Of a stretch of 49,931 nucleotides of DNA, positions 46,413 to 49,931 are shown piece after piece. Both the position numbers and the translations under genes were made by a program. Position 1 is the first letter of the stretch. Every line of letters begins with the position of its first letter. This DNA comes from Nitrospirota bacterium (lineage in GTDB: Bacteria; Nitrospirota; Nitrospiria; 2-01-FULL-66-17). Where the stretch lies: assembly GCA_049325335.1 (NCBI GenBank), contig JBMOMC010000045.1, forward strand, positions 1-49,931, in the 5' to 3' direction. The notes below the pieces were generated by a model. The model was not told where the DNA came from. It ran no database searches and saw only the letters and a list, made by a program, of their open reading frames with translations.

Positions 46413-47000
46413 TTAAAAAATGTCCCCACAATAATTGCGGTACTCACACTCCGTGCAGCGGGCCCGATGGGGTGTGGGCGGTGGGAGCACTTCGTCTCGG
46501 ACCATGGTTCGGATCACATCCAAGGCATCGGTCACGGACGCTCGTAACTCCTCCGTGATGAGCACATCTTCGGCGTCTTGACGTGGGATCAGATAGATGA
46601 ACCCCCGTTCGACCCGTCCGCCCATCACATCTTCGATCAAGAGCGCGTATGCTCCAAGCTGAGCGCGGTGATTGGCCCTCACCCCGCCTGAAGTGAATTT
46701 GAAATCCACCGGATAACGTTTAGAGTCGGTTTCAATAAGCAGATCCAGCTTGCCGGACAAACCAAGCCGCTCTGACGAGAGCCACACATGAAAACGGCGA
46801 CGACCGTCGCCCAACCCGTATCGGACCAACTTCCGTCGCTTTTCCAAAACGTCGAGACGGGCTTCTTGAGCCTTCCCAGCCTCCATCTTATAGGTCGAGA
46901 CTTTTTCCACCGGCAAGACGTATTGATAAAAGACGATTCGAGGACAATACTCGTACTGCTTGAGATCCGTCACACGCAACTGCAGGACGTTACTTGCCAT
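46413..47000 (-). CDS. cas4: CRISPR-associated exonuclease Cas4
   Basis: VTDLKQYEYCPR, GKLD...PVDFK, QLGAY, CTECEYRNYC Fe-S cysteines; start MASNVL. Confidence 0.93.
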   Translation of the reverse strand: MASNVLQLRVTDLKQYEYCPRIVFYQYVLPVEKVSTYKMEAGKAQEARLDVLEKRRKLVRYGLGDGRRRFHVWLSSERLGLSGKLDLLIETDSKRYPVDFKFTSGGVRANHRAQLGAYALLIEDVMGGRVERGFIYLIPRQDAEDVLITEELRASVTDALDVIRTMVRDEVLPPPTPHRARCTECEYRNYCGDIF

Positions 47001-47310
47001 CGGTGTGTTCCGGGGTAGAAACATCGTCCCCGTTCTTGTCACGTGTCGCGGTCTCCACGAGAATGGTCCGCCCCTCTCGGGCGTCCTTTTCACAGATAGG
47101 CTGGATCAGAATCCGACCCGGTTCCTCGCCGAGTTCACCCGACAGTCGCAGCCACAGTTCATCCCGTCGGTTTCTGGACAATGCTCCACGAAAGGCGCTG
47201 AATTGGATGCGCGTGAGTCCGTAGTCCTTGCATGTTTCAGACACCCGCAGACGAATGCGGTCGTCTTCGATGTCATAGAGGACCAGTGTCTGTTGCTCGT
47301 CCGCGGGCAT
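46990..47310 (-). CDS. cas2: CRISPR-associated protein Cas2
   Basis: LVLYDIEDDRIRLRVSETCKDYGLTRIQFSAF; start MPADEQQ. Confidence 0.93.
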   Translation of the reverse strand: MPADEQQTLVLYDIEDDRIRLRVSETCKDYGLTRIQFSAFRGALSRNRRDELWLRLSGELGEEPGRILIQPICEKDAREGRTILVETATRDKNGDDVSTPEHTDGK

Positions 47311-47314
47311 CCGA

Positions 47315-48469
47315 TTACCACTTGAAAAGAAACGGCCGATACCGCCCGCCATTTCGCAGAAACGCGGCGAGCTGGCGGGCTTGCCGCTGGATGATGGATC
47401 GGACCTGTAGCCGCTTGCCGGCAACGGGTTCCGACGCCTCCAACCGCTCCATGACGCGACGGGCAAACCGCCTTCTAGTGTCTTCGTCCAGCATGCCGTC
47501 GCGTAGAGTGACCGCCTCTCCCAGGTTCACGTGCGCGATCACCGCGCGATCAACCACCGGCTGCCGGAACTCTTCGACCAAATCGAGGACCAACGACGGT
47601 TTGCCCGGACGATCTACGTGCAGGAATCCTGCAAACGGCTCCAACCCCGCGTTGAGCACCGCACCCCAGACCTGGGCGTACAGAATCCCGTACCCATAGT
47701 TGAGTAGCGAGTTCACCGCATCAGTGGCGCCCCGGTGCTCGCGGCCAAAGAACTCCACGCGCTGCGAAATGACGATGGTGACGGCATTCCAATAGTGCCG
47801 GCCCGCCATTCCCTCGATCGACAGGAGGGATTGCCGCGCTTCATCCACCGACGCGCCGCGCACCGGCGGAACCTTTTTCCGCATCGCCCGGATCGCCCCC
47901 ACGCACTCCTCCACACGAGCAAAGCGCTCCGGATCGGCCTGCTTGAGGTACTTGCCGAAGTACCTCAACAGTCGTTCTTGATTGGCGAGCTTGGCCGTCA
48001 CGACCATCTTCGCAAAGACCACGCTCCGCTCATCCGAATACGCCAGGATCTGCGCGCGACGGGCCGTGACCGTCGCGTGGAGCATGGGTGACGTCAGCAT
48101 GGCATACGGCTGTCCGCCCCCGCGCAGAAAGGCCAGCCGAATTCCGCGCGTACAGAGCTCTTCTACTAGGTCGGATGAAACACTGATGCCTCGCGAGGCC
48201 ACCACAACATCCGAGAGACGGAAAAGCGGCACTTCAAGATGGAGCGTCTTCCCTTGCTTGACGGTGAGTCGCTCGCTCTTCTTGCCGAGAGAAATCCCGA
48301 ACCCCGACACGACGAGTTGCGCTTGATCATCGCTCGTGACGAGGACCACGCCGTCCGCCAGCACGCGTTCTTGCCATGCATCATCCAGCGGTTCAACGAC
48401 GACAGGAACCGTGTCGGGCTCTTCCTTAAACAGGTGATACTGGAGCGGCGTAATGGGCTCGTCCGGCAT
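47315..48469 (-). CDS. cas1: CRISPR integrase Cas1 with N-terminal extension
   Basis: EGMAGRHYW, DAVNSLLNYGYGIL, AGLEPFAGFLH, SLVLDLVEEFR; SD AAGGAGA before ATG 48469. Confidence 0.96.
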   Translation of the reverse strand: MPDEPITPLQYHLFKEEPDTVPVVVEPLDDAWQERVLADGVVLVTSDDQAQLVVSGFGISLGKKSERLTVKQGKTLHLEVPLFRLSDVVVASRGISVSSDLVEELCTRGIRLAFLRGGGQPYAMLTSPMLHATVTARRAQILAYSDERSVVFAKMVVTAKLANQERLLRYFGKYLKQADPERFARVEECVGAIRAMRKKVPPVRGASVDEARQSLLSIEGMAGRHYWNAVTIVISQRVEFFGREHRGATDAVNSLLNYGYGILYAQVWGAVLNAGLEPFAGFLHVDRPGKPSLVLDLVEEFRQPVVDRAVIAHVNLGEAVTLRDGMLDEDTRRRFARRVMERLEASEPVAGKRLQVRSIIQRQARQLAAFLRNGGRYRPFLFKW

Positions 48470-48871
48470 CCCGGTCTCCTTTGGGGATGATGACGGAGGT
48501 CAAGGATAGCTGGAAGGTATAGTGTGGCAAGGAGTCGGCTTGCGACAACGAGTCATACCAGCCAGCGTGGGAAACGACTCCAAGACTTTTGAAACCGCGG
48601 AATGATGAGTAACCTACGCAGGTTAAATCATCACGAGACTTCGCGTGCCTTTACACGTAATTCACTTCACCACACACATTGCGAGAACTGCCCTATGGCT
48701 GGGAAACAAGGCCCCTTTGCGAAAGCCTCGATGTCGATGACTTCACAGCCATTTTTATACAAAATGGCGTCTGCGCACGGAGGCTTTTTCTCCGTGCGCA
48801 GACGCCATAAAAAGGGATTTTCCAAAACCTATCCCTATCTTCGTGAAATACCGAATGTTTGGACACGCGCG
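48470..48871 (+). promoter_or_regulatory. CRISPR leader and divergent cas1 promoter region
   Basis: Non-coding, relatively AT-rich 402 bp between the cas1 start and the first repeat; contains a perfect 19-bp inverted repeat. Confidence 0.75.
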
Positions 48872-49931
48872 GTCACAGAACCTACCGCGGTCTTGGCGTG
48901 ACTGAAACTGCGATTCCCAGCCGGGTGATCTGGCATGAACTCCTCGTCACAGAACCTACCGCGGTCTTGGCGTGACTGAAACTCTTTTCTTCGCGATGCG
49001 TTGGGCCTTCCCCTTCCGTCACAGAACCTACCGCGGTCTTGGCGTGACTGAAACGATACCGATTATCACGCTGTCCGTCGTCCGCGATTCCGTCACAGAA
49101 CCTACCGCGGTCTTGGCGTGACTGAAACTCGTGACGGGACTCTCGACTGCGTGTGCGGCGCTTTGGTCACAGAACCTACCGCGGTCTTGGCGTGACTGAA
49201 ACCTGTGACATGGGTTGACGTGACGTGCCGAAGAAACTCCGTCACAGAACCTACCGCGGTCTTGGCGTGACTGAAACCTTGGGAACGTGGGGCCATCGGA
49301 GTTGCAAGATTCGTCACAGAACCTACCGCGGTCTTGGCGTGACTGAAACAGAACAACGCGCTGCGGGCGGAGAATGAAGAACTCGTCACAGAACCTACCG
49401 CGGTCTTGGCGTGACTGAAACGCGGACTGCACCCGTTCGGCCTGCCGCTCCGTGACCGTCACAGAACCTACCGCGGTCTTGGCGTGACTGAAACGGATGA
49501 AGAAATATAGGATTAAGTCTGAGGGGCCGGTCACAGAACCTACCGCGGTCTTGGCGTGACTGAAACAAAACCACAATCAGCTTTCCTCCGATGGCAGCAG
49601 CGGTCACAGAACCTACCGCGGTCTTGGCGTGACTGAAACTGATAATACTCATCGGCTGCTGAGCCGACAATCGCGTCACAGAACCTACCGCGGTCTTGGC
49701 GTGACTGAAACATCGTCACCGCGATGAGAGGTAGCCATCCCGCGAATGTCACAGAACCTACCGCGGTCTTGGCGTGACTGAAACCTATTCCATATGAAAT
49801 TCAAGGCACTACCGCCGATGCGTCACAGAACCTACCGCGGTCTTGGCGTGACTGAAACACACAACGAGAATATCAGCAGACACCGGGAAATCATGTCACA
49901 GAACCTACCGCGGTCTTGGCGTGACTGAAAC
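48872..49931 (+). CRISPR. CRISPR array: 15 identical 37-bp repeats GTCACAGAACCTACCGCGGTCTTGGCGTGACTGAAAC and 14 spacers of 35-38 bp, truncated at window end
   Basis: Repeat starts 48872, 48946, 49018, 49092, 49166, 49241, 49313, 49385, 49458, 49530, 49603, 49675, 49748, 49822, 49895; 3' GAAAC end and leader position give + orientation. Confidence 0.99.

Follow-up and report, generated by a model that had tools for sequence, protein, structure and literature searches.

The Cas1 of a Nitrospirota bacterium carries the pentapeptide QYHLF in an extension ahead of its core. Judged from the sequence, and with a probability that we place at roughly 0.7, this peptide would bind the pocket of the β-clamp DnaN and tether the CRISPR integrase to clamps on DNA. 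By its sequence, its placement and its evolutionary behaviour the peptide resembles a β-clamp-binding motif (CBM), and we treat it as a putative one. The clamp had been proposed as its target in a first-pass annotation of the window, by which we mean the whole 49,931-nucleotide stretch analyzed, at the start of a contig of 218,897 bases. That proposal is now supported by conservation of the motif, by hexameric motifs at two other sites, by independence of the effector type, by the motifs of host DnaE and MutS, and by a weakly positive co-fold. The observation itself is confirmed, and across the family it lies well beyond what chance would give.

The cas1 gene, its extension and its locus

The cas1 open reading frame (47315..48469, reverse strand, hence read from 48469 to 47315) encodes 384 residues, and its N-terminus reads MPDEPITPLQYHLF. 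The assignment is carried by the PF01867 and TIGR00287 profiles, which score 230 and 245.6 bits, above cut-off; residues E219, H284, D296 and E299, which we take to be the active site with its catalytic E/H/acidic triad, are invariant in an alignment of 54 homologues (alignment A1). The nearest solved chain is the Archaeoglobus fulgidus Cas1 (4N06; 37% identity), and the lineage is related to RT-Cas1 fusions. The ATG at 48469, earlier proposed on the strength of its Shine-Dalgarno sequence, holds up: AAGGAGA (48475..48481, reverse strand) lies 5 nt 5′ of it, and the only other in-frame starts within the first 60 codons, GTG at codons 36, 41 and 54, are not preceded by any Shine-Dalgarno-like run. 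We rejected a downstream start on these grounds, and because the region upstream of these codons is conserved in homologues.

The first Cas1 residue matched is 52 by the Pfam Cas1 profile and 51 by TIGR00287, so that the extension spans 50 residues (48320..48469, reverse strand), as profile starts, AlphaFold2 and homologue comparison delimit it; the long extension already described ahead of the Cas1 core is thus borne out. A variable acidic and proline-rich head is followed by the putative motif, QYHLF, at residues 10–14 (48428..48442, reverse strand; placed by sequence, conservation and co-fold), then by a linker and by strands predicted at residues 35–38 and 41–45. Description of this region as a probably disordered tail stands only in part. 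AlphaFold2 assigns pLDDT values below 50 to residues 1–5 and 22–27, but it predicts the two downstream strands and a modest-confidence hairpin (strands 9–12 and 17–20, block means 48 and 67) that covers QYHLF. The motif is N-terminal and flanked on either side by stretches with pLDDT below 50, yet is itself modelled as a hairpin; these models make a folded role likely for part of the extension and possible for the motif. An Atlas structure search with residues 1–50 returned no usable match, every TM score being below 0.5.

Downstream of cas1, in the order cas1, cas2, cas4, lie cas2 (46990..47310, reverse strand, 106 residues) and cas4 (46413..47000, reverse strand, about 195 residues), both assigned by profile matches. 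On the other side, a non-coding stretch at 48482..48871, a probable leader by its position, separates cas1 from a CRISPR array (48872..49931) with 15 copies of a 37-nt repeat in the window; three further copies lie beyond an assembly gap, outside the window, with a degenerate end repeat at C45:50254. Type II arrays have spacers of about 30 nt as a norm; those of the window array measure 35–38 nt, long for type II, a length that fits borrowing of a Cas4-type adaptation module. A weak repeat-like stretch in the leader (48823–48846; 19 matches over 26 columns) may be due to chance.

Past the array, beyond the window, stands a 1,020-residue Cas9d-like gene (C45:50573-53635, L003:774-3836, reverse strand), with an ORF6N-domain gene directly upstream (L003:3858-4448). 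Between array and cas9-like gene, a gapped partial anti-repeat match (C45:50463-50483, L003:664-684) is a candidate tracrRNA start. The locus is like the Type II-D (Cas9d) loci with cas1-cas2-cas4 in having a compact Cas9-like gene, an array and adaptation genes (PMC9755519, available portion, in which a Cas1 extension is not discussed). Unlike in Type II-D, the effector here has 1,020 residues and its best profile match, NF049971 (Cas9d), reaches 64.5 bits against a cut-off of 375, which leaves it outside the Type II-D effector definition; it may be a divergent compact Cas9.

The assembly, 99% complete, holds one cas1 and one dnaN, and no RAMP match that would indicate class 1 genes was found across it. 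None of 16 spacers matches outside the array, as self-targeting spacers captured from the chromosome would, a set too small to speak to strand or fork bias, and a search of viral contigs with two peptide patterns gave no match. Of two genomes from the same genus, G098 and G149, one has a different Cas1 (28% identity) and the other shows no Cas1 match, so the locus was probably acquired recently.

Conservation and placement of the motif

As set out in the available part of a review of clamp binding (PMC11139829), CBMs take two forms, Q-aliphatic-x-[LM]-[FL] and Q-aliphatic-x-[LM]-x-[FL], with a tolerant position 2; Q1, L4 and F5 matter most, and tryptophan at position 4 lowers clamp binding. 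QYHLF presents Gln at position 1 (Q10), Leu at position 4 (L13) and Phe at position 5 (F14), and departs from the aliphatic position 2 with Y11. Given this non-canonical position 2, and with clamp binding a prediction, we class QYHLF here as a putative CBM.

A lone QxxLF carries little weight. It occurs in 98 of the 1,883 host open reading frames of 200 residues or more, and within the first 50 residues in six of them, this Cas1 included. Other host proteins end in Q-x-x-L-F (G000:C43:300216-302979, C43:324862-325932, C26:77-1246 and C7:131535-132953); by eye they resemble a helicase next to a nuclease-like gene, a radical SAM-like protein, a transposase and PurF. The caution first attached to the motif, that a single 5-mer can arise by chance, thus stands for the isolated peptide, but not for the family: a Q-x-x-L/I-F/L/Y pentamer occupies the extension site in 119 of the 120 nearest homologues (58–94% identity), which removes chance as an explanation. 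This figure joins 118 from a first-match count to P0085, which carries QLNLF. The lone miss, P0055, begins at a downstream Met, and its presumed locus (L005, Gaiellales) encodes QINLY in frame upstream.

Among the first matches, QFNLF (58) and QINLF (31) prevail, followed by QFNLL (8), QYNLF (5), QLNLF (5), QFNIF (3), QINLY (2) and QMNLF (2), with QYHLF, QVNLF, QLDLF and QWNLF once each; L4 accompanies F or L at position 5 in 113 of the 118, the remainder being QFNIF and QINLY. Q10 is invariant in alignment A1. The motif passes the comparison that the first-pass annotation had proposed, with Q1, L4 and F5 kept and position 2 and the upstream flank variable. Between 4 and 52 highly variable residues precede the motif in near homologues. 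After it, the stretch TGE..P shows partial conservation within the nearest clade. Q lies 39–45 residues from the core in most rows, and 88 and 116 in two of 43; the conserved TGE..P and the near-constant spacing hint at a folded element. Flanks and spacing only were taken from the motif-anchored entropy table, which is circular for Q1 and L4.

The same Cas1 lineage carries this type of motif at three positions. At the extension site, as far from the core as in the near homologues, an Elusimicrobiota group has Q[QPK][EDN]LF, though its flanks differ and the TG turn is missing. In all five sequences with tryptophan at position 4 of the first site (Q-x-N-W-I/V), a QLxLxL hexamer follows 14–16 residues downstream (three acidobacterial loci, L061, L067 and L083, and two further proteins, P0125 and P0163). 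In a sister group, the Cas1 proteins of Binatota, Rokubacteria and relatives, the extension is absent and the second or third strand is followed by a long insertion carrying QL[FLVW]LP[LFMI]; more distant ones carry QLRLPF, QLELPF, QLMLPF or QIELNL within unrelated flanks. In P0272, tandem hexamers at residues 40–45 and 48–53 fall inside a segment (residues 37–57) of AlphaFold2 pLDDT below 50. The extension and loop sites are different positions in Cas1, and no representative at the 60% level has both extension and loop insertion. With a pentamer in the extension and a hexamer downstream or in a loop, the family matches both published CBM forms. Unfavourable or missing forms also occur: QFNIF in three of the 120 homologues, QYNLW in P0326, and no full motif in the Elusimicrobiota members P0399 and P0407. 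Three proteins, P0135, P0142 and P0160, have 104–223-residue insertions in the same loop with no Q motif, and P0135 and P0142 share RLLxLW.

Statistics were drawn from 470 database proteins, of which 440 were usable (30 with poor coverage of the core or the anchor were left out), reduced to 200 representatives below 75% core identity and compared with 300 shuffles. A relaxed pattern, chosen after the data had been seen and applied to related sequences that are not independent, occurs in 43/49 extensions (6.1 expected, shuffle maximum 11) and 20/25 loop insertions (1.6 expected, shuffle maximum 6), the extension group including two RT-fusion remnants, P0198 and P0248, that were counted as misses. 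At the same level it occurs in 3/34 RT-Cas1 linkers (2.6 expected), in 0/7 RT remnants and in 0/85 plain Cas1 representatives. By the published definition, the counts are 13/49 extensions (1.7 expected) and 19/25 loops (0.33 expected). Below 60% identity, 9/12 extensions (1.7 expected) and 6/9 loops (0.33 expected) carry the motif; below 50%, the figures are 5/7 (1.1 expected) and 3/6 (0.4 expected), both equalled by the best shuffles. Nitrospirota Cas1 proteins of other lineages have the motif in 0/30 cases, from 70 residues before to 35 residues after the core start.

In a quick tree of 66 hand-picked rows, the pentamer extensions lie on one side of a branch with an SH-aLRT value of 93; the tree of these chosen rows does not fix the number of gains, and one origin per placement is compatible with it. 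As no more than a lead, type I-G Cas4/1 fusions match in 3 of 18 anchored sequences (0.5 expected; reached in 9/1,000 shuffles); two of the three are close kin, and one overlaps with the start of Cas4. Two related type I-G-like Cas4/Cas1 fusions, L143 and L148, have QR[DE]LPL at the N-terminus, which may be a clamp hexamer, here in a distinct lineage of Cas1.

These patterns bear on a structural alternative, in which a β-hairpin packs on the Cas1 N-terminal domain, the pentapeptide supplies its first strand and turn, and the likeness of this peptide to a CBM is coincidental. The predicted strands 9–12 and 17–20 speak for it, as do the spacing of 39–45 residues in most rows and the sequence N-L-F-T-G-E, which is conserved in the nearest clade and resembles a common hairpin turn. 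However, this Cas1 and the Elusimicrobiota group lose the N and the TG while keeping Q, L and F, two of the 43 rows keep the motif far from the core at the two outlying distances, and a hairpin leaves unexplained both the loop hexamers in a disordered segment and the turnover of the motif. We regard a coincidental hairpin as improbable and continue with a CBM as the preferred reading.

Candidate binding partners

Effector context was available for 69 proteins from 36 of 80 loci. Motif-bearing Cas1 proteins occur with I-A-like Cas7 (L011, L023, L031, L046, L059 and L083), with I-B Cst2 (L007, L026, L035 and L036), with I-D genes (L005, L009, L027 and L030), and with Cas9, namely Cas9d in L017, a locus with a 747-residue Cas9d and a Cas1 bearing QFNLF, and a larger Cas9 in L038; a III-B gene also lies near L022. 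Since at least four effector types, including I-A-like, I-B, I-D and II, accompany the motif, an effector subunit is an unlikely partner; one shared by all loci more likely comes from the host or from within the adaptation module.

Cas2 and Cas4 accompany the motif in most loci with downstream sequence, which would suit docking of the motif on a partner within the adaptation complex, be it Cas4, Cas2 or another Cas1 protomer, perhaps in replacement of the Csa1 found in motif-less relatives. Csa1, a Cas4-like protein encoded by an extra gene after cas4, is present in 12 of the 80 loci (L056, L064, L066, L068–L070, L072, L074, L076, L079, L081 and L082), all with motif-less Cas1, and in 0 of the 28 motif-bearing loci with at least 2.2 kb of downstream sequence. 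This pattern follows two lineages, however, and is not independent evidence; moreover, the L070 Csa1 has at its C-terminus QLSLPF, a hexameric clamp-like motif, which fits a motif moving between proteins of the module, and a Cas partner would not account for the match to both CBM forms. Docking within the adaptation complex is accordingly rated unlikely, and the clamp remains our preferred target. Conceivably, the motif can pass between Cas1, Csa1 and Cas4/1 fusions. In L021, the open reading frame after cas2 is a cas4 frame with QLRLPL at position 21 of 271 residues, possibly before the true start.

The host DnaN, encoded at C1:635447-636556, has an apparently intact peptide pocket. Residues R151, L154, T171, G173, H174, R175, P247, V252, N325, Y328, M367 and P368 are invariant in 31 sequences; they were paired with the list of E. 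coli pocket residues by pattern and not by alignment, and the R246 equivalent appears to be Q. Other clients of the host clamp offer a comparison for position 2. The host DnaE carries QETLF, which aligns with QISLF, QLSIF, QISLF and QNGLF in four of five other DnaE loci, the fifth being split at this point; the host MutS carries QPDLF. With Glu and Pro, DnaE and MutS also miss the aliphatic residue, so an off-consensus position 2 is normal in this host. The host DinB has no match to the motif pattern, and the pattern for ligase is unspecific.

The co-folding of the Cas1 N-terminus with the host DnaN that the first-pass annotation had proposed came out as a weak pass: Cas1 residues 1–34 scored 0.57 (runs 0.57, 0.45 and 0.59) against 0.02 for the best control. 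Among reference pairs, 116 of the 157 solved ones and 2 of the 215 mismatched ones attain the mark, but those that do so at 0.60 or under are only 18 solved pairs and both mismatches. The runs share at least 85% of contacts, with a partner pLDDT of at least 53 and no interface given. Clamp-peptide complexes are well represented among solved structures, so the score may reflect memory and is a measure of likeness, not of binding.

A further reading holds that the family motif is a true CBM of which the QYHLF copy has decayed, so that it would bind little or not at all. It could draw on histidine at position 3, seen in only two of 43 aligned representatives, on the off-consensus Y2, and on loss in this Cas1 of the TG that follows the motif in most near homologues. 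Yet Q1, L4 and F5 are intact, P0002, which is 94% identical to this Cas1, retains QYHLF, and it was the QYHLF copy that made up the first row of the co-fold; decay thus strikes us as very improbable, and we proceed with QYHLF as a putative CBM.

Relation to known clamp clients and to spacer acquisition

According to the available part of PMC11139829, the motifs of established β-clamp clients (Pol II, Pol III α, Pol IV, Pol V, Hda and MutL) combine Q1, L or M at position 4 and F or L at position 5 or 6, come as pentamers and hexamers and sit in termini or loops, all as in the Cas1 family; the Pol V motif, QLNLF, recurs letter for letter in 5 of the 120 near Cas1 homologues. The word CRISPR is absent from the main text of that review. 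What sets the Cas1 family apart from the known clients is that a CRISPR integrase carries the motif, that an aromatic (F or Y) or polar residue usually fills position 2, and that clamp binding is a prediction.

Tn7 TnsE and a group II intron protein are reportedly clamp-binding, DNA-inserting proteins. Transposases of the Tn3 family (TnpA; PMC11417375) and of insertion sequences (PMC3971601) likewise insert DNA and have a short clamp motif that is patchy within the family and variable in location; the available portions of both papers mention neither Cas1 nor CRISPR. Transposases rely on the clamp in selecting where to insert. For Cas1, whose insertion site, the array, is fixed, the clamp would more likely govern where spacers come from, or the timing and repair of integration. 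Our search of a mostly open-access literature found no paper on a clamp motif in Cas1, be it for the bacterial clamp or PCNA; supplements of genome-wide CBM scans, such as a 2001 survey, could list Cas1.

Cas1-Cas2 forms a complex of 4:2 stoichiometry, and the integrase should therefore carry up to four motifs. In the mechanism we propose, the motif would dock in the DnaN pocket and tether the Cas1-Cas2(-Cas4) integrase to clamps, whether these sit at a replication fork, behind it or at a gap. Were binding to occur, capture at replicating or gapped DNA seems to us somewhat better than an even bet, a role in the timing or repair of the integration step a good deal less probable, and any other use improbable. 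With less assurance still, we suggest that such a tether might raise spacer capture from actively replicating DNA, for example that of phages or plasmids.

The type I-E system of E. coli provides the closest functional background, here drawn from the available text of two studies. Adaptation needs active replication (PMC13244154, PMC10359635). Foci of Cas1-Cas2 depend on fork progression and collect at gaps behind the forks, where DnaN also works (PMC13244154). These foci track replication yet sit apart from the core replisome (PMC13244154), so a replication bias does not need a CBM. In that available text, DnaN figures only as a marker or an element of a scheme, with no contact or motif claimed (PMC13244154, PMC10359635). 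A clamp tether, by comparison, would make the coupling of Cas1-Cas2 to replication direct.

How Cas1-Cas2 finds DNA, and why replicating DNA is favoured, is called unclear in a 2026 paper (PMC13244154, available portion). A five-residue, mutable clamp motif on Cas1 offers a direct physical hypothesis for this preference, and natural relatives with and without the motif exist for comparison. The Cas1 lineage concerned serves I-A-like, I-B, I-D and II systems in Nitrospirota, Desulfobacterota, Acidobacteriota, Binatota, Elusimicrobiota and others. At somewhat less than even odds, we suggest that this one broad bacterial lineage gained a clamp-docking peptide more than once and loads its integrase on DnaN, the density of clamps on replicating phage or plasmid DNA then serving naive adaptation as a cue of self versus non-self. 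If the clamp tether is true, CRISPR integrases would join the clamp clients beside transposases, and Cas1-Cas2 recorders might be tuned or retargeted through the motif.
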